DNA from: an uncultured Spirochaetota bacterium
Lineage (GTDB): Bacteria; Spirochaetota; Spirochaetia; SZUA-6; Fen-1364
Reading direction: 5' to 3'
Assembly: GCA_963745235.1 (NCBI GenBank)
Contig: CAVUXE010000035.1
Coordinates: forward strand, 192,001 to 256,000
DNA length: 64,000 nt
This document shows positions 41,922 to 54,926 of this stretch, piece after piece. The position numbers and the translations under genes are program-made. The notes below the pieces were generated by a model that ran no database searches, was not told the origin of the DNA, and was given only the letters and a program-made list of their open reading frames with translations. Each line of letters starts with the position of its first letter. Position 1 is the first letter of the stretch.

Positions 41922-42794
41922 CTAGTTCAGCCAGGTAATTTGAGGTTTTCTTCTCGGAAGCGTCCTGTGGTAAGTCACTTTCGGATAGCCTATTGCCAGG
42001 ACAGCCTGTGGGGCGCTCCCCTCTGGAACGCCAAGGCTGTCTCGCAACGACGTATTCCTGTCGAGCGCGAACTTCATGAAGCCCATCTGACAGGTGGCAA
42101 GACCGATTCGTCGGGCGGCGAGTTCTACGTTGTACAGGGCATGAATCGCGTTGTCTCGCGCCGAGCCATCGCTCTTCGGAGTGAGCGCGATCGCGACCGC
42201 AGGAGCTCGGAAGAAGATCGGTTCGTCCCCCGCGTCCTCGCGTGTCTTGAGCGTTGCAAGCTTCAGGGCGAATCCCTTCACCGCGGCGACATACTCCCGC
42301 CCTCTTGATGCGCGGAAGAACAGTTGAACCAGCGGGTTTCTCAGGAATCGCGACATCTTCGTGAGGAACAGCACCGTTCGCTTGCTCAGATCTTGAATCG
42401 TTTGCGGGTTGTCGACCACAAGCCAGTCGACGTTTTGGCTGTTGCTGCCAGTCGGGGCATACCTGCCGACTTCGAGAAGATCCCGTAAGGTCTCGCGCGG
42501 AATCGCGCTATTGCGAAAGGCGCGGGTAGATCGTCTTTCTTGAAACAATCCGACCAGGCTCTGGTAGCTCGGAAGAACTTCGAAGTCGATAGGCGGGCAA
42601 AGTGCAAGTGGATACTCGCTGTGGTTGATCGCGCCAACAGGGCACGCAGCAACGCAATGACCACACTTCCAACAGGAGTTGGACGCGGCCTGGGCGACGT
42701 TCTCTTCCGAGAGCTTGTACACGTGGGCGATGCACACGCGGCTGCATGCCCCGCACCCGTTGCAGATCTCCTTGTCGACGGCTATCTGAACCAT
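41922..42794 (-). CDS. Nitroreductase with N-terminal 2x[4Fe-4S] domain
   Basis: 'CNGCGACSRVC', 'CWKCGHCVAACP', 'RRSTRAF', 'APTGSNSQ'. Confidence 0.9.
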   Translation of the reverse strand: MVQIAVDKEICNGCGACSRVCIAHVYKLSEENVAQAASNSCWKCGHCVAACPVGAINHSEYPLALCPPIDFEVLPSYQSLVGLFQERRSTRAFRNSAIPRETLRDLLEVGRYAPTGSNSQNVDWLVVDNPQTIQDLSKRTVLFLTKMSRFLRNPLVQLFFRASRGREYVAAVKGFALKLATLKTREDAGDEPIFFRAPAVAIALTPKSDGSARDNAIHALYNVELAARRIGLATCQMGFMKFALDRNTSLRDSLGVPEGSAPQAVLAIGYPKVTYHRTLPRRKPQITWLN

Positions 42795-42889
42795 CACGTC
42801 CCTCCCGAATCGGTTCGCTTGTGAACACAACAGCCCGCGCAGCGACGTCAGGCGGTCCAAACGCGCCGCTGGGCAGGCTCCGTCAGACT

Positions 42890-43246
42890 CTACCTGACCT
42901 CGGCAAGGGCCTTCTGGTAGTCTCCCATTCTCCGCTGAAGTTCTTCTCCGACGAACGCGTCGATAACTCCAAAGTTGGGCACCAGCAGGGCGACACGGAT
43001 GTTTCGGCTCTCGAATTCCGGATCCATCTTTATCCTGGCCAGCTTGTCGCGGTCTCCGTGAACCAACAGGAAGCCACTCAAATCGCCGCCGATGTAGTCG
43101 AGGAATACGGCCTCGAAACTGTCGATCATTCGCTCTTGTTGTTTCCGCTTCCAGTACTCGGTGGCCTCGGCAAACGCCTTCACGGCCTTTTCTGCGAGGG
43201 CGGGCGTTGGGAAGCCCCAACGGATGAAAAGGGCACCTTTTGCCAT
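42890..43246 (-). CDS. Conserved-looking hypothetical protein (small alpha/beta)
   Basis: RBS GAGGAGG, normal coding composition, 'FLDYIGGDLSGFLLVHG'. Confidence 0.7.
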   Translation of the reverse strand: MAKGALFIRWGFPTPALAEKAVKAFAEATEYWKRKQQERMIDSFEAVFLDYIGGDLSGFLLVHGDRDKLARIKMDPEFESRNIRVALLVPNFGVIDAFVGEELQRRMGDYQKALAEVR

Positions 43247-43437
43247 AGCGTTCCTCCTCTGAAGGGTGACCGCCTGAGGTCAACTATCCGGCGTCTCGAA
43301 ACTGCTGTCAAGGAATTCCTGAAGGGGAGTCTCGCCCTCGCGAAGCTACCCACGATGCCGCGCGACGGATGCGACTATCCAGCAGATATGCGCGGCGAGA
43401 AGCGGCAGTAGGACTGAATGCGATCGTTGACCTGAAC

Positions 43438-44645: not shown

Positions 44646-47600
44646 ATGACCGAACCTGATGGAACGGCTAGGATAATTCCTCACTGGCTCATTCCCGCCT
44701 CCCTGCTGTTTCTCGTTGCCGGTGGCGCCTGGTTCTACGTCACCCAAAAAGACGCTCTGGAGGCGACGGCGAGAGAGAATCTCAACACGATTGCAAATCT
44801 GAAAGTGAACCAGATTGAGCAGTGGCGCGCCGAAAGGCTCGGGGATGCCGCTGAGCTGGTAGAGAGCTCCTTCAATTCCGCGGCGTTGTCCCGTTGGATG
44901 GACGGCACGCCGAGCGAAGGTAGCGACCAGATTCTCACATTGTTTCGTTCCTACCAGGCGTATGGCGGCTACGCCGATATTCTCCTGGTCGATGGCGAAG
45001 GGAAAGTCCGCCTCAGCCTGAGCGGGCATCCATGGGCGTCGGGCGAACAAACCACTCACACCCTTGCCGACGCGTTGCGCGACCATCGGCCGAAGCTGAG
45101 CGATCTCCAGGAGAACGCTGGCAGCCCGGGGCCCTACCTCGATGTCATTGCGCCCCTGTTCGCTGGGAAGGGAGAAACCATCCGCGCTGTGGGCGCGGTC
45201 CTCTTGCGCTGCGAGGCCAGGGATTTCCTCTATCCTCTGATCCAGTCATGGCCACTGTCGAGCCGGACCGCGGAAACCTTGCTTGTGAGGCGGGACGGAG
45301 ACAGCGTGCTGTACTTGAACGAGCTGCGCCAACAGCAACACACCGCGCTCGCCCTTCGGCTCCCGGTGAGCCGCACGGATCTGCCGGCAGTCGCCGCGGT
45401 AGCGGGAGGGGAAGGCGCGTTTTACGGGAAGGACTATCGCGGCGTCCCTGTCGTGGCGATGTTGAAAGCCATCCCCGGCTCGTCGTGGTTCATTGTCGCC
45501 AAGGAAGATGCCGCGGAGGTGCTGGCGGCCTGGCGGTTCCGCTCGCTTCTCATCCTGGCGCTGATCCTGGTGCTCGTTGCCGGGGCCGCTTCGGCCGTGG
45601 TGGCCATCTGGCAGCGCAACGAGAAGAATCGATATCGATCCCGGTTCGAGTCCGAGGCAATGCGACGCGTGGCGGAGGAGCGCTACCGGATCACGCTCTT
45701 GAGCGTCGGGGACGGAGTCATTGCCACTGATGCGGAAGGAAAGGTGCAGTTCGTGAACCCGGTTGCCGAGTCCCTGACCGGATGGCCGCAGGAAGATGCC
45801 CGCGGCAGACCGCTGGAAGAAGTCTTCCACATTCTGAATGAAGAAACCAGGCTGCCGGTTGAAAACCCGGTGAGCAGAGTGATTCGAGAAGGCGTGGTGG
45901 TGGGTCTCGCAAATCACACGCTGCTGGTAGACCGGGCGGGCAGGGAGCGCGCAATTGCGGACAGCGGCGCTCCCATCAGGGACCAGGCTGGGGGGACTGT
46001 CGGCGTGGTCCTGGTCTTTCGCGACATCACCGCGGAGCTGCGCACCCGGCGCGAGCGGGAAACGACGGTTGATCTGCTGCGACTGCTCAACACGCAGAGC
46101 GTGACGCACGAGCTGATTCGAGAGATAACGGGATTGATGCAGAGGTGGACCGGCTGCGAGGCGGTCGGTGTACGACTGAAGGAAGGGGACGATTTCCCGT
46201 ACTTCGAGACCCGCGGGTTCCCGGCGGATTTTGTCGAAGCAGAGAGGTATCTCTGTGAGCGCGACATCGGCGGGGAGCTGGTCCGGGATGAATCATTCAG
46301 CCCGGTTCTCCAGTGCATGTGCGGCACCGTGCTGCGCGGTCGCGTCGATTCTGGGCTTCCGTTTTTCACCCCGAAAGGAAGCTTCTTCACGAACAGCACC
46401 ACCGAGCTGCTGGCCACGACGTCGGAGCAGGACCGACAGGGCCGGACCCGCAACCGGTGCAACCGGGAAGGCTATGAATCTGTCGCTTTGATACCTCTGC
46501 AGAGCAGTGATGAAACACTTGGACTGCTTCAGCTGAACGACCGGGGCCGCAACCGATTCACCCCAGAGCTCATTTCATTTCTTGAAAGCGCCGCGGATCA
46601 GATCGCCATAGCGCTCGCGCAAAGGAAGGCGCTGTCCGACCGGAAAGAGAGTGAACAACGCTATCGCTCACTTTTCCAGAACATGTTGAACGGGTTTGCT
46701 TATTGCAGGATGCTCTTCACGGACGGCAGAGCGCAGGATTTCATCTACCTCGAGGTAAACAGCGCTTTCGAAACGCTGACAGGGTTGAAGAACGTCACCG
46801 GCAAAAAGGTGTCCGAGGTCATCCCCGGAATCCGGGAATCGGATCCCCAGCTCCTGGAAGCGTACGGGCGGGTTGCGCTGACCGGCCGACCCGAGCGATT
46901 CGAAACCTATCTCGCGGCATTGGATATGTGGTTTTCCATCTCCGTGTACAGACCGGGCGAGGAACATTTCGTGGCCATCTTCGATGTCATCACGGAGCGC
47001 AAGAAGATGGAGGCCGCGCATCAGCTCCTGGTCTCGGCCGTGGAGCAGGCCGCGGAGATGATCGTCATCACCGACCCCGCCGGGATGATTCAATACGTCA
47101 ATCCCGCGTTCGAGACCGTCACCGGCTACTCTTTTGACGAGGTGATCGGGAGCAATTCGCGCATTCTGCAAAGCGGGGAGCACGACAAGGATTTCTACAG
47201 GAACCTCTGGGAGACGATCATCGGCGGGAATACCTGGAAGGGTCATTTTATCAACAAGAAGAAGGACGGCACTCGCTATTCGGAGGACGTGGTCATATCA
47301 CCGGTGCGCGGCCCTGAGGGTGGCATCGTCAACTTCGTGGCGGTCAAGCGCGACAGCACGCGCGAGCACCTTCTGGAGGACCAGCTTCGACAGGCACAGA
47401 AAATGGAGTCAATCGGCAGGCTTGCCGGCGGGGTGGCGCACGATTTCAACAACATGCTTCAGGTGATCAGCAGCTACGTGGAGATCTCACTGGGGCAGAC
47501 GGAAGAAGGGGACCCCCTTCACCGAAACCTGCTGCAGGTGGGCAAGGCGGCTCGGCGCTCAGCGGACCTCGTCGGACAGCTGCTGGCCTTCGCGCGCAAG

Positions 47601-48518
47601 CAGACGGTGAGCCCCCGGGTCGTGGACGTGAACGAGGCCGTCGGCGGCGCGTTGCGGATGCTCCAGCGGCTCATTGGTGAGGACATCGACATTGCATGGA
47701 TGCCGGGCCATGACGTGGGGAAGGTCAGGATCGATCCTTCCCAGCTCGACCAGGTCCTGGCCAACCTCGCCGTCAACGCGCGTGACGCGATCAGTGGCGT
47801 GGGGAAGCTCACCATTGAGACTGAAAATATGACGATCGACGAAGAGTATCGTTCCGCGCACCCGGGCTTTGTGGCCGGAAACTTCGCGATGCTGGCGGTC
47901 AGCGACAACGGGAGCGGGATGAACCGAGAGACGCTCTCCCACCTGTTCGAGCCGTTTTTCACGACAAAGGCAGTGGGAAAGGGAACGGGGCTTGGCCTGG
48001 CCACCGTGTACGGCATCGTCAAGCAGAACAACGGCTTTATCAACGTGTACAGCGAGCCAGGGCGGGGATCGACATTCAGGATCTACCTGCCCCGGGTCGC
48101 CGAGCAGCCCGAAGATGCTCCGGCCGGAGGAGGCGCCCGAGCGATGCCCAAGGGAACCGAGACAATACTGGTGGTTGAAGACGAAGAGGCAATCCTGGAG
48201 ATCAGCAGAACGCTGCTCGAGAGTCTGGGGTATACGGTTATCAGTGCCGGCACTCCGATTGAGGCGCTTCAACAGGTTGCCGAGCTGAAGAAGCCCGTCC
48301 AGCTTTTGATCACCGACGTCGTGATGCCGCAGATGAACGGGCTCGAGCTGGCAAGACGGCTCGCTGAGACGAATCCCGGATTGAAATGGATATTCATGTC
48401 AGGCTATACGGCGGATGTCATTGCCCATCAGGGCATACTGGACAAGGGAGTTCATTTCATCTCAAAACCGTTTTCGATGAGCGACCTCGCGGAAAAAGTC
48501 CGCGAGGTGCTAGGCTGA
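44646..48518 (+). CDS. Hybrid sensor histidine kinase: TM-Cache-TM-PAS-GAF-PAS-PAS-HisKA-HATPase-REC
   Basis: 'AGGVAHDFNN', 'NLAVNARDA', 'EPFFTTK..GKGTGLGL', receiver 'ITDVVMP...FISKPF'. Confidence 0.93.
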   Translation: MTEPDGTARIIPHWLIPASLLFLVAGGAWFYVTQKDALEATARENLNTIANLKVNQIEQWRAERLGDAAELVESSFNSAALSRWMDGTPSEGSDQILTLFRSYQAYGGYADILLVDGEGKVRLSLSGHPWASGEQTTHTLADALRDHRPKLSDLQENAGSPGPYLDVIAPLFAGKGETIRAVGAVLLRCEARDFLYPLIQSWPLSSRTAETLLVRRDGDSVLYLNELRQQQHTALALRLPVSRTDLPAVAAVAGGEGAFYGKDYRGVPVVAMLKAIPGSSWFIVAKEDAAEVLAAWRFRSLLILALILVLVAGAASAVVAIWQRNEKNRYRSRFESEAMRRVAEERYRITLLSVGDGVIATDAEGKVQFVNPVAESLTGWPQEDARGRPLEEVFHILNEETRLPVENPVSRVIREGVVVGLANHTLLVDRAGRERAIADSGAPIRDQAGGTVGVVLVFRDITAELRTRRERETTVDLLRLLNTQSVTHELIREITGLMQRWTGCEAVGVRLKEGDDFPYFETRGFPADFVEAERYLCERDIGGELVRDESFSPVLQCMCGTVLRGRVDSGLPFFTPKGSFFTNSTTELLATTSEQDRQGRTRNRCNREGYESVALIPLQSSDETLGLLQLNDRGRNRFTPELISFLESAADQIAIALAQRKALSDRKESEQRYRSLFQNMLNGFAYCRMLFTDGRAQDFIYLEVNSAFETLTGLKNVTGKKVSEVIPGIRESDPQLLEAYGRVALTGRPERFETYLAALDMWFSISVYRPGEEHFVAIFDVITERKKMEAAHQLLVSAVEQAAEMIVITDPAGMIQYVNPAFETVTGYSFDEVIGSNSRILQSGEHDKDFYRNLWETIIGGNTWKGHFINKKKDGTRYSEDVVISPVRGPEGGIVNFVAVKRDSTREHLLEDQLRQAQKMESIGRLAGGVAHDFNNMLQVISSYVEISLGQTEEGDPLHRNLLQVGKAARRSADLVGQLLAFARKQTVSPRVVDVNEAVGGALRMLQRLIGEDIDIAWMPGHDVGKVRIDPSQLDQVLANLAVNARDAISGVGKLTIETENMTIDEEYRSAHPGFVAGNFAMLAVSDNGSGMNRETLSHLFEPFFTTKAVGKGTGLGLATVYGIVKQNNGFINVYSEPGRGSTFRIYLPRVAEQPEDAPAGGGARAMPKGTETILVVEDEEAILEISRTLLESLGYTVISAGTPIEALQQVAELKKPVQLLITDVVMPQMNGLELARRLAETNPGLKWIFMSGYTADVIAHQGILDKGVHFISKPFSMSDLAEKVREVLG

Positions 48519-48932: not shown

Positions 48933-49008
48933 GTTTCCGCCTTCCCCAAGCCAAGATTGACTGTCTTCCAACATGCTGTCAATGTCATCTGCGCAGGAGA
49001 GGACTCCC

Positions 49009-49857
49009 ATGGTCGTCGTTGACAGGGAAAAGTGCACCGGCTGCGGCTCGTGCGTGCAGATTTGTCACCAGCATTGCGTGTCGCTCGTCGAACAGAAGGT
49101 CGCGATCGAGCGCGTCCTGTGCAGCACCTGCACACAATGCGTTGCCATGTGCGCTCAGAAAGCTCTGTCCTGGGACGGAGCTTCCCCTGTGAGCTTTGAG
49201 CCCGCTCTCCTGCCGTCTGCCGCACAACTGGACGAGCTTTTCCGGGAACGGCGGACAATCAGGGACTTCGCTGACCGACAGGTGGACCGCGCGGCGCTGG
49301 AGGAAATTGTTTCCTATGGAGCCTGCGCTCCGACCCACAACTTTGATTTCAGATCCGTTATCATCGATGATCCTGCGCTCATTTCGCTCTTCGGCGAGGC
49401 CGCGTTTCGGTTCTCAAGGCGGATATATCGACTGGTGTTTCGCCCGCGGCTCATCCGCCTCCTGGTTCTCCTGGCTCCGCGCCCTGTGCGCGAAGAGTTC
49501 AGAAAGGCCGAGTCCAAGCTGCGCACAGTCATCGGCAGGGGGAAGGGCTTCGCTACCCTGCCGCCCGACATGGTCTGCATCGTGGGCGACAGGCGGATTC
49601 CCCTGTCCCTGGAAAGCGCGCAGTATGTCCTGTACACAATGGCCCTGTACGCGCAGGTGAAAGGGCTGGCATGCCGCAACCTCGTGGGGAACCAGATGAT
49701 TTTCAACGCGAACAGCAAGATACGTCGGGGACTGGGGCTGCAGAAACACGAGCGCATCTTCGCCGTCGCCGGCTTCGGTCATCCCGCGGTGAGGTTCAGG
49801 AACAAGGTCATGGGAAAGAAGATGCCGGTGCAGTGGAATGGGGCTTCGACCGGCTGA
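49009..49857 (+). CDS. Second nitroreductase with N-terminal 2x[4Fe-4S] domain
   Basis: 'CTGCGSCVQIC', 'CSTCTQCVAMC', 'RRTIRDF', 'APTHN'. Confidence 0.88.
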   Translation: MVVVDREKCTGCGSCVQICHQHCVSLVEQKVAIERVLCSTCTQCVAMCAQKALSWDGASPVSFEPALLPSAAQLDELFRERRTIRDFADRQVDRAALEEIVSYGACAPTHNFDFRSVIIDDPALISLFGEAAFRFSRRIYRLVFRPRLIRLLVLLAPRPVREEFRKAESKLRTVIGRGKGFATLPPDMVCIVGDRRIPLSLESAQYVLYTMALYAQVKGLACRNLVGNQMIFNANSKIRRGLGLQKHERIFAVAGFGHPAVRFRNKVMGKKMPVQWNGASTG

Positions 49858-49884: not shown

Positions 49885-50274
49885 TCACCCGCGGTCATGG
49901 ATCTTGTATTCGAAATCGTAGGAATGCTTTCCGTCGATGATCGTGATGGTCATGGAACCCGTGAGGCCGACAAGCTCGCCGGCCCCGGAGTCCGGCACGA
50001 CGCTGATGGTCAGGTGCGGTTCGCCCCGATTCATGGTTCCGCTGTGCTGGAGCACGAAGGTGCCGCGGCGGCCATGCAGCGTCCCGCTCACGCGTTCCAT
50101 GGCCACGTAACCGACCGACCCCTCGATTTCCGTGCTCGCGCTCAGCATCTCGCCCTTGCTGACTGCTTCGAGGTCTCCCCGGAATTGTTTGTCGATTGAC
50201 ATCCTGCCGATGTACTCGTCTGAATCCTGGGGCACCAGCTTCACTTCAAACGAACCGCTCGCTCGATTTGCCAT
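49885..50274 (-). CDS. DUF3224-family protein
   Basis: 'GYVAMERVSGTLHGRRGTFVLQHSG...VVPDSGAGELVGLTG'. Confidence 0.85.
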   Translation of the reverse strand: MANRASGSFEVKLVPQDSDEYIGRMSIDKQFRGDLEAVSKGEMLSASTEIEGSVGYVAMERVSGTLHGRRGTFVLQHSGTMNRGEPHLTISVVPDSGAGELVGLTGSMTITIIDGKHSYDFEYKIHDRG

Positions 50275-51296
50275 ACAGTCAGGGATAATTTCGTCTGGCG
50301 ATCGATGAAAGTCAAACGCCTGTCGGCCGGAGGCCGCCGTGGTTCAGATGCGATCCGCCGGTACGGCCCGGCGCATGCAGGCCGGGGAAGGAGCCCCGCC
50401 TGGCTCACGATCTCCGGGACGCGATGCTCCCACTCGATGGCCATGATGTGGACGCCGGCCACCCCCTCGATGTCCTTCAGCTGCCGGATGATCTCGCAGC
50501 AGATCTTGATGCCCTCAGCCGCCCCTTTTTCCTTCGGGACCGCCTCCATCCGCTTCAGGATCGACTCGGGGATGATTATCCCGGGCACGTTCTCCACCAT
50601 GTATCGCGCCATGCGGAAGGACTTCAGGGGTATTACCCCGGCAAGGATCCGACACCTGGTGTGCACCCCGAGCGCCCTGACCTTTTCCATCCAGTCCGCG
50701 AAGAGGGCCACGTCGAACACGCATTGCGTCTGGGAGAAGTCCGCCCCCGCGTTGACTTTCTTTTCCAGGAGACGAGCCCGGAGCTCGTAGGGGAATGCAA
50801 ATGGATTTGCCGCCGTGCCGATGAACAGGGGAACTTTCCCGGACACCTCTTCGTCGTTCCCGAGCACGCGCTGCTCGTCCCGCAGCCTCTTTACGGCGGC
50901 GACGAGCTGGGTGGAATCTATGTCGTAGACCTTCTTGGCCCCCGGCTGGTCACCCAGGCTGTGGTGATCTCCGGAGATGCACAGGATGTTCTTCACGCCG
51001 AGCGCCGAGGCCCCGAGGATGTCGCTCTGGATTGCGATGCGGTTGCGGTCACGGCAGGTCATCTGCATGACAGGCTCGACGCCCTGCCTCACGAGGAGCG
51101 CCGCGCACGCGATGCTGGACATGTGGACCATTGCGCTCTGGTTGTCCGTGACGTTCACCGCGTCCACCGAGCCGCGAAGCTGGCCGGCTTTCTTCTCCAC
51201 AACGGCGGTGTCGGTGCCCCGGGGCGGTCCGAGCTCCGCTGTCACTGCAAAATGGCCCTCGGAAAGGACCTTCTCGAGGTTGCTTCCGGCTTTCAT
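50241..51296 (-). CDS. metF: Methylenetetrahydrofolate reductase, MetV-associated type (C-terminal tail possibly extended by an indel)
   Basis: 'VTAELGPPRG', 'NVTDNQ', 'MTCRDRNRIAIQSD', 'KKVNAGADFSQTQ', 'GVHIMA'; ATGA overlap with metV. Confidence 0.9.
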   Translation of the reverse strand: MKAGSNLEKVLSEGHFAVTAELGPPRGTDTAVVEKKAGQLRGSVDAVNVTDNQSAMVHMSSIACAALLVRQGVEPVMQMTCRDRNRIAIQSDILGASALGVKNILCISGDHHSLGDQPGAKKVYDIDSTQLVAAVKRLRDEQRVLGNDEEVSGKVPLFIGTAANPFAFPYELRARLLEKKVNAGADFSQTQCVFDVALFADWMEKVRALGVHTRCRILAGVIPLKSFRMARYMVENVPGIIIPESILKRMEAVPKEKGAAEGIKICCEIIRQLKDIEGVAGVHIMAIEWEHRVPEIVSQAGLLPRPACAGPYRRIASEPRRPPADRRLTFIDRQTKLSLTVWQIERAVRLK

Positions 51297-52015
51297 GCGC
51301 TGTCCTTGTCGAATCGCGGGTCGTAGCGCTCTTCGAATCCCCGCTGGACGAGCACTCCCTGTCCTCTTTCGAGCCATTCCTTCGGGGGCTGGATCTCCAT
51401 CATGTCGTCGACCCTTCCCTGGGCCAGCAGTCGGTCGTAGATTGCGTTCCACGCGCAGCGAAGGCCGCCGCCCAGCTCGCATTCGCCATCGGAGCGCGTG
51501 CCTCCGCACGGGCCGTTGAGGACTCCCTTCGAGCAGCGGGAGAGGGGGCAGATGCCTCCCGTGAGACCCAGGACGCACCTCTTGCAGGTGCGGCAGCGCT
51601 CTTCGTACAGCCCGACGTCGACGTCGACGCCGATGAACATTGTGTCAAGCGCCGGGAAAACGGGCTTGGTCGGGTACCTGTCTCCCAGGTTCTGCGTGCC
51701 CGCTCCACAGGCGCCGGAAAGGATGCAGTCCGCGTTCTGGACGAGGTCCGTGATGTCTTCCAGGAACTGCGCGTTGCATTGCCGCTCCACGGTGACGCAG
51801 GAGAACTGGAGGGGTACCTTCTCCCGGCGGGAAAGCTCCGTCAGCTCCTCGTTCAGGGCCAGGACTTCTCTCTGCCCTCCCGCCATGCAGACCGAGGTGC
51901 AGCCGCCGCAGCCGACTGTGAGCACCTGGAGGACGTCCCGCGGGCGCCGCTTCTCCTTGTAGCCCCGTATCAGCGCGAATATCTCTTCCAGGGGCTTTTG
52001 CTTTGCCTTTACCAT
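51293..52015 (-). CDS. metV: MTHFR small Zn/FeS subunit
   Basis: 'GCGGCTSVCMAGG', 'ERQC', 'ACGAG', 'CRTCKRCVLGLTGGICP', 'CSKGVLNGPCGG', 'CAW'. Confidence 0.88.
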   Translation of the reverse strand: MVKAKQKPLEEIFALIRGYKEKRRPRDVLQVLTVGCGGCTSVCMAGGQREVLALNEELTELSRREKVPLQFSCVTVERQCNAQFLEDITDLVQNADCILSGACGAGTQNLGDRYPTKPVFPALDTMFIGVDVDVGLYEERCRTCKRCVLGLTGGICPLSRCSKGVLNGPCGGTRSDGECELGGGLRCAWNAIYDRLLAQGRVDDMMEIQPPKEWLERGQGVLVQRGFEERYDPRFDKDSA

Positions 52016-52034
52016 TTCCGGTTCCTCCTCGGCG

Positions 52035-52427
52035 TCATGCGTTTCGCTCACCGTCGTACGTGCGGAAGACGCCTCTTTCTCTGCAGACGCTGCGGGCGCA
52101 GGCTATCAGTGACGGGATGCTGACCCCGACGGGGCAGTAGCAGCGCATGCACAGCACGCACCGGTCCCAGACCAGCTCATTGATCGCGCGATACTCCGCT
52201 TCGGACAACCTGCCTTTTTTCCGGTAGATCTTTCCGATCGAGTTGATGGCTTTGTACGAAGGGGTGTAGCCGGGGTCCCCGCCGCTTGACTGGAACTTGA
52301 AGCAGCTCTCAGCGCAAAGGGCGCAGTGCATGCACGCCTGGAGGGACAGCTGGATCATTTCCCTGTTCCTCGTGAGAACACGCGAGATGCGATGCGCCGT
52401 GATGGCGTCTTTCGTGGATTCGTTCAT
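52035..52427 (-). CDS. Stand-alone 4Fe-4S dicluster protein (TmcB/HmcF/DsrK N-terminal-like, no CCG domain)
   Basis: 'CMHCALCAESC', 'PSYK', 'CVLCMRCYCPVG'; ATGA overlap with the upstream gene. Confidence 0.85.
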   Translation of the reverse strand: MNESTKDAITAHRISRVLTRNREMIQLSLQACMHCALCAESCFKFQSSGGDPGYTPSYKAINSIGKIYRKKGRLSEAEYRAINELVWDRCVLCMRCYCPVGVSIPSLIACARSVCRERGVFRTYDGERNA

Positions 52428-53392
52428 GCGCCCCTTCCCCAGGCCCTTCTGGCCGGCTTCCATGCATACTCCCCCGAGGCGGAGAACCGGGAGAAAAGGA
52501 GGAACGGCATGTGGCCCAGCTTCGTGAAAGGGATTGCCAGGAGGACCGCATCTCCCGCGACGATGTGTCCAATCATCAGCCATCGTGAAGAGGAGACATG
52601 GTGGTAGAGCATCAGGCCCGTCACGAACGGGGCAAGGACCAGCACCAGGATCAGGTAGTCATACAAGGTTGAAAGCACGCGCACCCGCGGGACGGCGAGG
52701 CGGCGCACAAGGAAGAAGCCGCCGAGGAGGACAAGGATAATGGTAAGCCAGTCGGCGAGCTGCGCGGGGATGGCAGGCAGCCGCGCATGAATGCTGTGGT
52801 ACAGGATCATGTTGTGCGCGGGAAGGAGCAGGGGAACGAGAAACAGGAGGACGTGAAAGATGAGGCTGACCGTCCTCATTGTCGGGTGGGACAGGCTTTT
52901 CGGCCCGGCGGGTCCCACGAACAGGATTGACCGCAGGGATCGCCGCGCGGGAGGAGAAGCGGCCACGGCGGGTCGTGGGGAAAGGGGCCCACGCGCGGGC
53001 CGCCGTCTGGTGAGCCGTATGAACTGCCGCAGCCTGTACAGGATTCCCAGCGCAGCCGCCAGGAGGCAAAAGCGGAGAGCAGGCCCCGCCGCGAAGTTGT
53101 AGAGCGTGCCCGAAAGCTCCCGCTGCGTCCTGGGCGCTCGCGAGGCAGAGCCGGTGGCAGCCGTGCCGGCGCCGGGTGCCTCATGCTCTGCCCGTGAGGC
53201 CGACGTGGTTGCATCCACGGTGGCGCGGGAAGCGGAGGTCGGTCCTTCCTTCGGCGCTTCCGCGGTTGTCCTGGATGCCGAGGTCGTTGCGTCAGCCTGT
53301 TCCGCCCAGGAGAGGGCAGGGGTGATGCAGATCACGATTGCAAGAGCCCCCGGCAGCCAGAGCCCGCTCCGGGGGATGCGTTTGACGGGCAT
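52424..53392 (-). CDS. TmcC/HmcE/NarI-like di-haem cytochrome b membrane subunit with an N-terminal signal peptide and repeat arm
   Basis: 'LYNFAAGP', His pairs 'FHVLLFLVPLLLPAHN' and 'HIVAGDAVLLAIPFTKLGH', 'RRLAVPRVRVLSTLYDY'. Confidence 0.82.
   Translation of the reverse strand: MPVKRIPRSGLWLPGALAIVICITPALSWAEQADATTSASRTTAEAPKEGPTSASRATVDATTSASRAEHEAPGAGTAATGSASRAPRTQRELSGTLYNFAAGPALRFCLLAAALGILYRLRQFIRLTRRRPARGPLSPRPAVAASPPARRSLRSILFVGPAGPKSLSHPTMRTVSLIFHVLLFLVPLLLPAHNMILYHSIHARLPAIPAQLADWLTIILVLLGGFFLVRRLAVPRVRVLSTLYDYLILVLVLAPFVTGLMLYHHVSSSRWLMIGHIVAGDAVLLAIPFTKLGHMPFLLFSRFSASGEYAWKPARRAWGRGA
53138..53296 (-). repeat. Four peptide repeats ADATTSASR / EGPTSASR / VDATTSASR / AATGSASR
   Basis: Read directly in the translation, between the signal peptide and the first TM helix. 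Confidence 0.85.
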
Positions 53393-53399
53393 GCCTTGC

Positions 53400-54038
53400 C
53401 TACGCGCCGACGATGGCCTTGAGCTTCTCCGCCGCTGAGGCTGCATCTGCTGCATAGCCGTCAGCGCCGATCTCCCGGGCGTACTGGTCCGTGAGCGGCG
53501 CCCCGCCCACCAGGAACTGCACCTTGTCGCGAAGCCCTTCCTTCAGGAACCGGTCAATGACGTCTTTCATCCCCGTCATCGTCGTGGTGAGGAGGGCCGA
53601 CATCCCGATGGCTTTGGCGTCCGGGTTGTCCTTCAATCCCTGGAGAAACTTGTCCGCCGAGACATCGATCCCCAGGTCCACCACTTCCATTCCCGCTCCC
53701 TGCGCCATCATCTTCACGAGGTTCTTCCCGATGTCGTGCAGGTCTCCCTTCACCGTGCCGAGCAGCATCTTCCCGATTGGCTTTATGCCCGCTTTCACAA
53801 GCTCGGGGCGGAGGATCTCCATGCTCTGGTTCATGGCCCGGGCAGCGATGAGAACCTCGGGAATGTATACCTCATTTGCCTTGAACCGCCGGCCGATCTT
53901 CTCCATCCCGTCCAGGAGTCCCTGGTTCAGGATTTCCCCGGCGCTCTGCTTTGCCGCAAGAAGTGAGGATGTAAGCTCCTTCGCCGCGCTTGCGTTGCCC
54001 TTCTGGATTGCCTCAGAAAGCTCCTGATATGTCGCCAC
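53400..54038 (-). CDS. Methyltransferase-cognate corrinoid protein
   Basis: Four-helix cap 'YIPEVLIAARAM', B12 motif 'GDLHDIGKNLV', 'SALLTTT', 'VGGAP'; GTG start 54038. Confidence 0.92.
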   Translation of the reverse strand: MATYQELSEAIQKGNASAAKELTSSLLAAKQSAGEILNQGLLDGMEKIGRRFKANEVYIPEVLIAARAMNQSMEILRPELVKAGIKPIGKMLLGTVKGDLHDIGKNLVKMMAQGAGMEVVDLGIDVSADKFLQGLKDNPDAKAIGMSALLTTTMTGMKDVIDRFLKEGLRDKVQFLVGGAPLTDQYAREIGADGYAADAASAAEKLKAIVGA

Positions 54039-54188
54039 CGTCCACCTCTCTTTCGGGCGTTGTTCGTGTCCGTGTGGCTTCATCATGCATCCGGAATCAC
54101 CGGGCGTATTGTATGATTCGTGCCCGTTTTGTAAAATTCTGCTATTCGCCGGGTGAGGGATTTCCAGCGAGGCTCCTCAGCGTGAAGG

Positions 54189-54926
54189 CTATGCCTTTCG
54201 AGCCTTTGACCGCAGCCTCTTCTTGGGTGTCGCTGCCCTCTTTCGCGCGGCGGGGCGTACCGGCTTCGGAGACGCCAGCTTTTTCAGCTTCTTCTCGAGT
54301 GAACCCGAATATTCCTCCAGATGCAGGAGGACATTGAACACGTCCTCGAGCGCCCGGTCGTAGAGCTCGCGGGCGCGAGCGGGATTGGCTCTTGTCAGCT
54401 CCTTGACGTCGTGGAAGGCGACAACAGTGTTGTCCTCCGCGGCAACGATGTCCGCTGGCCTGCTTTTCTGGTGAAAAATGGCTGCCGAGCCGGCCATGGA
54501 TCCCTGCCGGTACTTGAGGCCGGGGAGTCCCGCGTTCTGGGCGGACCCGCGTACTATTTCGCAGGCCACCGCGATGCCCTCTCCCTTGTCGAGGATAACG
54601 TCTCCACGATTGAAAGTGCGTGTGTCGCCCGCGGCCTCCGCGCCCTCCACGGGCTGAGTGAACACCGAGCCGGATGTCAGGCCTCCGAGGCGCTCGTAGG
54701 ATCCTGAGACCTTGAAGATCTCCGGGTTCGCAAGCTGGTGCTTTCTGCCGTGCAGTGCGTCGTGCTTTATGAATGCCATGTTTTTGGCTATTTTCAAGGC
54801 TTCCGAGTCCACGTCCGCCTCGGTGACGCCCATGAAATTTTCCTTGACGATAAACTCCGACGCAAAGGTGCACCCGGGTTCCCGGCACCTGATCTTGTAT
54901 ACAGCTTCCTTGAGCCTGAAGGACAT
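54189..54926 (-). CDS. Cyclic-nucleotide-binding-like domain protein with putative N-terminal metal finger and basic tail
   Basis: 'FNRGDVILDKGE', 'IVRGSA', 'RPADIVAAED'; N-terminal CxxxxC...HxxxHxxxH. Confidence 0.65.
   Translation of the reverse strand: MSFRLKEAVYKIRCREPGCTFASEFIVKENFMGVTEADVDSEALKIAKNMAFIKHDALHGRKHQLANPEIFKVSGSYERLGGLTSGSVFTQPVEGAEAAGDTRTFNRGDVILDKGEGIAVACEIVRGSAQNAGLPGLKYRQGSMAGSAAIFHQKSRPADIVAAEDNTVVAFHDVKELTRANPARARELYDRALEDVFNVLLHLEEYSGSLEKKLKKLASPKPVRPAARKRAATPKKRLRSKARKA

Follow-up and report, generated by a model that had tools for sequence, protein, structure and literature searches.

In a 64,000-nucleotide stretch of DNA from an uncultured spirochaete (contig CAVUXE010000035.1, positions 192,001 to 256,000; hereafter the window), a minus-strand gene encodes a predicted dihaem cytochrome b, P0001, that resembles the TmcC and HmcE proteins and carries, ahead of its first transmembrane helix, a disordered arm with an array of heptads like those at which ApbE (also called Ftp) attaches flavin mononucleotide (FMN). 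The gene is followed by genes for a small iron–sulfur (FeS) protein and for MetV and MetF of methylene-tetrahydrofolate (THF) reductase. We consider it somewhat probable that P0001 would be the FMN-tethered periplasmic outlet of a membrane-bound MetVF complex that oxidises methyl-THF. An earlier, sequence-only reading of this DNA had proposed that a multi-FMN arm substitutes for a cytochrome c and links cytoplasmic C1/folate redox to extracytoplasmic electron transfer, and that interpretation is supported as far as sequence analysis reaches.

A motif-bearing arm on a TmcC/HmcE-like cytochrome b

Reading the open reading frame (ORF) at 52424..53455 from the ATG at 53392 yields a 322-residue protein. 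This ATG lies 8 nt past the stop codon of an upstream corrinoid-protein gene, and homologues share the start site; the range covered by the sequence-only reading, 53138..53392, corresponds to residues 1–85. P0001 passes the cut-off of the NarI-like family PF02665 (24.9 versus 22.9 bits), and the best NCBIfam matches of its core (residues 96–309) are TmcC at 146 bits and HmcE at 138 bits, both under the equivalog cut-offs of 240 and 275. The AlphaFold2 model, built on a 38-sequence alignment, has a mean predicted local distance difference test (pLDDT) score of 68.9, with a confident five-helix core, a helix over residues 12–38, and a disordered arm in which pLDDT falls below 50 for most of residues 43–79. 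A Foldseek search with this model returned NarI chains as all eight of its best matches, each of them weak (E 0.09–0.3). Four histidines, His180 and His193 on helix 2 and His276 and His294 on helix 5, are invariant across the 38 aligned sequences, which is the pattern expected for two haems b; the 18-residue spacing between the pair on the last helix is that of NarI.

Residues 1–30 look like a signal peptide, with Lys4, Arg5, and Arg8 preceding a 17-residue hydrophobic run and an SWA/EQ junction that has small residues at −3 and −1. The cleavable-looking signal claimed from the sequence alone is thus present, and homologues share the junction. The arm that follows is low in complexity and rich in Ser and Thr, has no Pfam match, and holds, as the same reading had described, DATTSAS twice together with two degenerate copies (Table 1). 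Its count of up to four motifs needs grading: two copies are full matches, one has Glu for Asp, and the last is degenerate, with no Asp and with Gly at −3. In this numbering the acceptor Ser/Thr is 0, Asp is −6, the first Ser/Thr is −3, the Gly position is −2, and Ala is −1.

We compared the array with chance expectation by using a strict motif, D..[ST][SG]A[ST], and a relaxed one, [DE][AG]x[ST][SGA]A[ST]. Composition-preserving shuffles of residues 31–95 (100,000 runs) produced one or more strict motifs with P = 0.010 and never produced two. A six-frame scan of the 5.85-Mb assembly (6.49 million residues in stop-to-stop segments of at least 80 residues) found the strict motif in 52 segments, with two copies only in the P0001 gene, and the relaxed motif in 32 segments, with at least two copies only in the P0001 gene and a second NarI-like gene. 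Chance does not explain the P0001 array. Nor are the two DATTSAS copies the product of a recent tandem DNA duplication, which is ruled out because five of their seven codons differ.

The motif is also conserved among homologues. Searching 5.8 billion proteins returned 78 relatives of P0001, giving a family set of 79 sequences; the relatives with a named source are assigned to Spirochaetia, Spirochaetota, or Rectinemataceae, in addition to one Deltaproteobacteria record. The strict motif occurs in 43 of the 79 sequences and in 42 of the 50 members with an N-terminal extension, 45 of which have the relaxed form [DE]-A-x-[ST]-[SGA]-A-[ST]. The five others are one 5′-truncated record and four proteins that truly start at helix 1. 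Strict copies number one in 17 of the extended members, two in 19, three in 5, four in 1, and none in 8, and the spacers between copies vary, in agreement with the expectation that the motif would be conserved while the spacers differ. At 107 arm instances of [ST][SGA]A[ST], the residue three positions before the first Ser/Thr is Asp in 83 and Glu in 13, the residue two positions before it is Ala in 97, and Arg or Lys directly follows the last Ser/Thr in 70; the flanks vary. The first motif of homologues begins 3–5 residues past the W-[AS]/Q junction of predicted signal cleavage, and the place aligned with degenerate copy 4 of P0001 holds a full motif in most close homologues.

Motif residues are retained with free synonymous codon change over 12 loci, and the motif persists in homologues down to ≈36% identity. 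Along with its occurrence in 45 of the 50 extended homologues and the failure of shuffles to yield two copies, this retention makes it very improbable that the arm is functionless, either as drifting low-complexity sequence or as residues outside the mature or translated protein, even if its low complexity, the degenerate copy 4, and the short family forms that work without an arm would fit such a view. A downstream start, which the sequence-only reading had named as one way in which the arm might go untranslated, is rejected: the only in-frame Met downstream, Met172, lies after conserved helix 1, and its use would delete that helix.

The arm had been expected to be periplasmic, and by inference it is. 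The N terminus has the features of an N-in signal or anchor, the loop following helix 1 contains 11 Lys/Arg and no Asp/Glu, and later loops alternate as in NarI. In addition, eight of the 79 family members, all from other genomes, contain a cytochrome c3 domain with four CxxCH motifs (PF02085) between the heptad motif and helix 1, and seven of these eight retain one heptad ahead of the c3 domain. Because c-type haem domains mature exclusively outside the cytoplasm, the P0001 arm would occupy the periplasm as well, in the same place as the c3 domain of its sister proteins. A wider profile search of 1.84 billion representatives (594 matches) gave a consistent picture: most relatives are ≈220–240 residues long and start at helix 1, and those that are N-extended have a motif arm in some cases and a multihaem c domain in others, the latter including the distant representatives P0202, P0240, P0272, and P0341. 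The absence of a multihaem cytochrome c, noted from the sequence alone, holds for the whole assembly (85.7% complete), in which no ORF has two or more CxxCH motifs. As to place, the proposed substitution of the arm for a cytochrome c stands, and an FMN redox role may go with it. The same genome encodes a PF01578 cytochrome c assembly gene (C15:49520-50116).

A second NarI-like cytochrome b of this genome, P0082, lacks a signal peptide and has an acidic N-terminal tail with DAVSAAS and DAVTSAS. Its family (542 matches) has tails of ≈48 residues that usually contain two D-A-[VT]-[ST]-[AGS]-A-[ST] heptads and are poor in Lys/Arg, with 0.95 per tail versus 3.5 in the 25 residues after helix 1. Over 80 loci of this family, from Spirochaetota, Bacillota, and Desulfobacterota, the gene belongs to a DsrE2–cytochrome b–FeS triad (DsrE2 in 72, FeS in 78). 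Members from Spirochaetota and Bacillota have the tail, some with DATSGAT twice, and those from Desulfobacterota start at helix 1. Two cytochrome b families thus bear the motif arm, both in lineages with few cytochromes c.

This recurrence bears on whether the heptads might instead be docking motifs for a periplasmic partner, such as a hydrogenase, formate dehydrogenase, or assembly factor, with multiple copies raising avidity and the partner passing electrons to haem b directly or through a scavenged quinone. Short conserved motifs in variable number within a disordered region are typical of docking sites, the genome has seven matches to NiFe-hydrogenase genes, and the NarI family normally uses quinol, for which an incomplete assembly may miss the pathway. 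Against docking, the motif also appears on the second, differently partnered family across phyla, and it is retained in c3-fused proteins, which already have a redox domain to act as the partner; no conserved candidate for a partner gene lies next to the module, and the position-by-position match to an enzyme recognition site would have to be coincidence. We therefore regard docking as distinctly unlikely.

ApbE and the candidate flavinylation sites

No apbE had been seen in the window. Elsewhere in the assembly, we found two ApbE genes (PF02424, 289 and 269 bits), each with a lipoprotein-type signal ending in Cys; Treponema Ftp is likewise a lipoprotein. As given in a review (PMC12052999), the ApbE motif is D-x-x-[S/T]-G-A-[S/T], about 50% of flavinylation is kept when its Gly is changed to Ala, changing Asp to Ala has a minor effect, and the seven-residue motif suffices as a flavin tag, performing best at a terminus. 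P0001 copies 1 and 3 agree with this heptad at −6 (Asp), −3 (Ser/Thr), −1 (Ala), and 0 (the Ser/Thr acceptor), and copy 2 does so with Glu for Asp.

The Ser that replaces Gly in P0001 had been raised as a caveat, which the partial tolerance of Ala given in that review weakens, as do two further observations. Arms of orthologues include Gly forms, namely DATSGAT and DAVSGAS in P0037, DAQSGAS in P0028, DAASGAS in P0047, and DLLSGAT in P0054/55. In addition, we surveyed RnfG and RnfD sites at 30 FMN_bind loci from 41 genomes of relatives. The RnfG/NqrC-site heptad is present at 28 of the 30 loci, with Gly in 25 and Ala in 3 (DAISAAT, DAITAAT). A second heptad lies ≈1 kb upstream at 12 loci and has Ala in 9, Ser in 2, and Gly in 1; the eight of these that were checked by Pfam all fall in RnfD/NqrB-family ORFs and have Ala or Ser at the Gly position. 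Such RnfD/NqrB sites read DAVSSAS, DAVSAAS, DATSAAS, and DVITSAT, among others, often with a Ser acceptor. Because RnfD and RnfG of relatives show Ser or Ala here, the variants found in the arm already occur at natural sites of classical substrates in the order, sites that motif searches demanding Gly would overlook.

Several related observations concern the Rnf and FMN_bind genes themselves. The RnfD-like protein of this genome (C52:41582-42595, minus strand) has no recognisable heptad at the aligned place; an RnfC-like ORF lies beside it (C52:42685-44181, minus strand), and no RnfG-type FMN_bind ORF was seen in the cluster. This motif-less RnfD is reminiscent of the "noncanonical Rnf" of T. 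pallidum (PMC4436053). In genome G017, a small FMN_bind gene adjoins ApbE-family matches in two pieces, covering model positions 1–75 and 125–266 (C5:176210-177159), and the same arrangement occurs at matching places in G003, G004, G005, G006, G009, and G016. The two pieces may belong to a reduced or divergent ApbE, with the adjoining FMN_bind protein as its substrate.

A number of points weigh against flavinylation of the arm and its proposed role. Gly at −2 is absent from every copy in P0001, where Ser takes its place and the acceptor is Ser rather than Thr; Ser acceptors are tolerated with flavinylation 10–55% lower, according to the review (PMC12052999). Gly is found at the sites of the remaining likely ApbE substrates that this genome encodes (DAVSGAT, DAVTGAT, DFVSGAT). 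Flavinylation of the relatives' RnfD sites is assumed by homology, and Deka et al. described T. pallidum RnfD as without a recognisable motif (PMC4436053). There is no apbE within ≈9–10 kb at any of 13 P0001-family loci or 80 loci of the second family (0 of 93), and therefore the neighbourhood argument that identified other ApbE substrates is missing here. Co-occurrence says little, because almost every genome of the order (58 of 61) has ApbE. No FMN_bind (PF04205), DUF2271, or DUF3570 fold was found around the P0001 sites, which by prediction is to say that no folded flavin-binding domain surrounds them, and we know of no natural ApbE substrate, established experimentally, that is a bare array on a disordered arm. 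Finally, gene absences were judged on an incomplete assembly, and the direction of electron flow discussed below rests on gene content. Two results are neutral: all five arm-bearing genomes from other lineages have ApbE, yet 8 of 14 control genomes have it too, and a complex prediction of ApbE (P0080, residues 22–340) with FAD, Mg, and the arm (residues 30–96) scored 0.00 in a run without controls, which counts neither way.

Some of these points would also suit a different modification. Some bacteria O-glycosylate low-complexity Ala/Ser/Pro stretches in their periplasmic proteins, and the arm could be a Ser/Thr/Ala-rich periplasmic linker whose heptads are targets of such a modification, with a structural or protective role and not a redox one. 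Its disorder, low complexity, and Ser/Thr content, the lack of apbE near all 93 loci, and the departure of every P0001 copy from the canonical Gly are compatible with this. However, the conserved positions (Asp −6, Ala −5, a small residue at −2, Ala −1, Ser/Thr 0) coincide with those of the ApbE motif, and Gly, Ser, and Ala interchange at −2 exactly as they do at the RnfD and RnfG sites of relatives. Glycosylation sequons of the D-[ST]-x type need Ser/Thr right after Asp, which the heptads do not have, and a Pfam scan detected no glycosyltransferase linked to the operon. Modification other than flavinylation thus seems unlikely, although it deserves more weight than the other alternatives to ApbE-dependent attachment of FMN.

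The MetVF operon and the direction of electron flow

Chance adjacency does not account for the link to folate redox proposed from the sequence alone. We fetched 13 loci of the P0001 family, two of which, from the weakest matches, gave no match; in all 11 of the relatives' loci that hold the gene, it is followed by the FeS, metV, and metF genes in the same order. The start and stop codons of cytochrome b and FeS overlap as ATGA at 52424–52427, as do those of metV and metF at 51293–51296, suggesting that the four-gene module is translationally coupled. The FeS protein, which is 61–86% identical across the 11 syntenic loci, aligns to positions 23–137 of the 430 in TmcB and 52–152 of the 457 in HmcF, and thus to their N-terminal ferredoxin part only; its Pfam and NCBIfam profile matches include no CCG domain. 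A Pfam scan of the operon detected no HdrA, MvhD, or RnfC2. The best NCBIfam match of the corrinoid protein that begins the operon is the glycine-betaine corrinoid protein MtgC (203 bits, under the cut-off of 370), and a corrinoid gene precedes the cytochrome b only in the loci of the three closest relatives (L029–L031).

Other genes lie around the operon. Ahead of the corrinoid gene lies a weak cNMP-binding-like gene (54189–54926), which the three closest relatives have kept as well. Two ferredoxin–nitroreductase fusion proteins flank the operon (41922–43283, minus strand; 48973–49857, plus strand), and a 1290-residue Cache/PAS/GAF hybrid histidine kinase is encoded nearby (44646–48518, plus strand).

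We next consider what the module might be for. Acetyl-CoA synthase (PF03598) was not found in this genome and was found in only one of 21 genomes of the genus (G011), which has no match to the P0001 cytochrome b; an acetogenic role for the MetVF module was rejected on these grounds. FTHFS is present, as are three MttB-family and 27 URO-D-family matches, and a second, ordinary metF lies elsewhere, on contig C37. A second corrinoid-protein gene (L135) has no methyltransferase in its neighbourhood. The menaquinone pathway was not detected in the 85.7%-complete assembly, where MqnA was not found and MenA and MenB matched only under cut-off, which disfavours a NarI-like quinol-oxidase mode for the cytochrome. 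The MttB- and URO-D-family matches, together with the lack of acetyl-CoA synthase and of ORFs with two or more CxxCH motifs, point to a demethylating, non-acetogenic lifestyle. With acetyl-CoA synthase lacking in the genus, genes for corrinoid-dependent methyltransferases abundant in this genome, and no menaquinone pathway detected, outward flow appears most likely, and we infer that the module would oxidise methyl-THF derived from methylated substrates and send the electrons outward.

Electrons could also run the other way, from a periplasmic donor such as H2 or formate through the arm to cytoplasmic methylene-THF reduction, forming an energy-conserving redox loop. Desulfovibrio Tmc and Hmc are thought to work inwards, and hydrogenase genes are present here. 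Moreover, Sporomusa ovata membranes show H2-dependent methylene-THF reduction, and according to that study none of the subunits in its MetVF complex has a transmembrane helix (PMC9430772). With acetyl-CoA synthase in 1 of 21 genomes of the genus, however, there would be no sink for a high methyl-THF flux; the operon begins with a methyltransferase-type corrinoid protein, and the MttB- and URO-D-family matches fit a supply of methyl-THF. Inward flow is accordingly a rather improbable direction for this module.

In the mechanism that we favour, the signal peptide would export the N terminus, and the arm, flexible and without a fold of its own, would lie in the periplasm, held by helix 1. Either or both lipoprotein ApbE proteins would attach FMN through a phosphoester bond to the last Ser of two to four sites. 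The tethered flavins would take the place of a multihaem cytochrome c (TmcA or the fused c3 domain) and exchange electrons with the haem b nearer the periplasm and with partners that are soluble or extracellular. At the cytoplasmic face, the cytochrome would dock the TmcB-like di-cluster protein, which would pass electrons to or from MetV–MetF. Methyl-THF (about −200 mV) would thus be oxidised by MetVF, with an external acceptor receiving the electrons after their passage through the FeS protein, both haems b, and the FMN arm, and this outward flow would relieve the thermodynamically difficult step of methyl-group oxidation.

A broader proposal, which we advance tentatively and hold to be possible but short of probable, is that fold-less ApbE-site arrays on the exported N termini of TmcC/DsrM-type cytochromes b may be a general device of cytochrome-c-poor spirochaetes and clostridia, linking transmembrane haem b to the outside via tethered FMN. 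MetVF in this operon would then be an electron-exporting, membrane-bound methyl-THF oxidase and a fifth architecture of methylene-THF reductase.

Table 1. Positions of P0001, its parts, the genes of its operon, and related loci; numbers without a contig or locus prefix refer to the window.
Feature	Position	Strand	Basis or remark
P0001, predicted TmcC/HmcE-like dihaem cytochrome b, with putative signal peptide and motif-bearing arm	52424..53392	-	PF02665, NCBIfam, Foldseek, invariant His
Putative signal peptide or signal anchor, residues 1-30, ending ...SWA/EQ	53303..53392	-	charges, hydrophobic run, small residues at -3/-1
Predicted disordered periplasmic arm, residues 31-95	53108..53302	-	pLDDT, no Pfam match, charge topology, c3-domain homologues
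Motif copy 1, DATTSAS, residues 34-40, then R	53273..53293	-	
Motif copy 2, EGPTSAS, residues 49-55, Glu replaces Asp	53228..53248	-	
Motif copy 3, DATTSAS, residues 60-66	53195..53215	-	
Degenerate motif copy 4, AATGSAS, residues 78-84	53141..53161	-	
Corrinoid (B12-binding) protein, first gene of translationally tight operon	53400..54086	-	PF02310, PF02607
Small 2x[4Fe-4S] protein, 130 aa	52035..52427	-	PF13183, PF13534
MetV, methylene-THF reductase small subunit	51293..52051	-	PF12225, E 3e-31
MetF, methylene-THF reductase, likely start M95 of long ORF	50241..51296	-	PF02219, E 4.5e-41
Second NarI-like cytochrome b (P0082)	C52:173209-174090 = L025:5219-6094	+	
DsrE2-like gene and DsrK-like FeS gene flanking P0082	L025:4357-4932 and L025:6098-7015		
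Likely ApbE substrates, DUF2271-like lipoproteins (DAVSGAT, DAVTGAT)	C3:12247-13146 and C83:15412-16143	-	one 27.1 bits vs cut-off 27.3, other no Pfam match
Likely ApbE substrate, FMN_bind protein (DFVSGAT)	C29:113037-113615	-	
Relatives' rnfD-rnfG regions with Ala/Ser-variant RnfD heptads	L136, L138, L139, L141, L145, L147, L149, L150		

Relation to known electron-transfer systems

We found no published description of a flavin-site arm on a TmcC/NarI-like cytochrome b or of a membrane MetVF module in a search from which subscription journals were mostly absent, and neither "NarI" nor "cytochrome b" occurs in the main text of Meheust 2021 (PMC8238504) or Huang 2024 (PMC11334425). How MetVF couples to electron carriers and the membrane is an open question of anaerobic C1 metabolism (PMC9430772). 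If our proposal is true, MetVF gains a dedicated membrane partner, and C1/folate metabolism would be linked directly to extracytoplasmic electron transfer. If the arm is flavinylated, a class of bare motif arrays, borne by a cytochrome b and lacking a flavin-binding fold, would join the natural ApbE substrates as a new one; predictions of the "flavinylome" from motifs alone would need to accept Ser or Ala in place of Gly; and transmembrane electron transfer of the Tmc/Hmc kind would be feasible without multihaem cytochromes c or quinones. The hosts are spirochaetes of peat, fen, and sediment, where methylated compounds and humic acceptors are plentiful, so the module may matter for carbon turnover.

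Among the closest known systems are the Tmc and Hmc complexes of Desulfovibrio. The core of P0001 matches TmcC and HmcE best and the next gene matches the ferredoxin part of TmcB and HmcF, but P0001 scores under the equivalog cut-offs, and its FeS partner lacks the CCG (disulfide-reductase) part. In Tmc and Hmc, the periplasmic component is a multihaem cytochrome c, TmcA or HmcA, and sister proteins of P0001 fuse a TmcA-like tetrahaem c3 domain before helix 1; no multihaem cytochrome c was found in this genome, where a disordered arm with motifs takes that position. The FeS gene here is followed by metV and metF and would not serve DsrC.

Among ApbE/Ftp substrates (NqrC/RnfG, NqrB/RnfD, DUF2271, DUF3570), P0001 shares the heptad logic and the predicted extracytoplasmic location, and it differs in having Ser for Gly, no nearby apbE, and an array joined without a break to a cytochrome b of the NarI type. 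The multi-flavinylated "beads on a string" proteins (PMC8238504, PMC11334425) resemble it in having several sites and a proposed cytochrome-c-like relay, but they are built of repeated folded FMN_bind domains with one site each, of which P0001 has none. The engineered flavin tag performs best at terminal positions (PMC12052999), and the first P0001 site would lie at the mature N terminus.

MetF (PF02219) and MetV (PF12225) are encoded together here, as in acetogens. Whereas acetogen systems take the form of MetVF, RnfC2–MetVF, or HdrCBA–MvhD–MetVF (Moorella, Sporomusa), the module here has its own predicted dihaem cytochrome b and di-cluster connector, and its host genus is without acetyl-CoA synthase in 20 of 21 genomes.

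The extracellular electron transfer system of Listeria comprises Ndh2, EetA/B, PplA with two FMN_bind domains, and FmnB, which is an ApbE. Like the arm proposed here, it uses covalently flavinylated, membrane-tethered carriers to move electrons from the membrane to outside acceptors in hosts poor in cytochromes c. PplA, however, is a folded lipoprotein fed by quinone, whereas in P0001 the candidate sites lie on the cytochrome's own disordered arm, which would be fed by folate C1 units.

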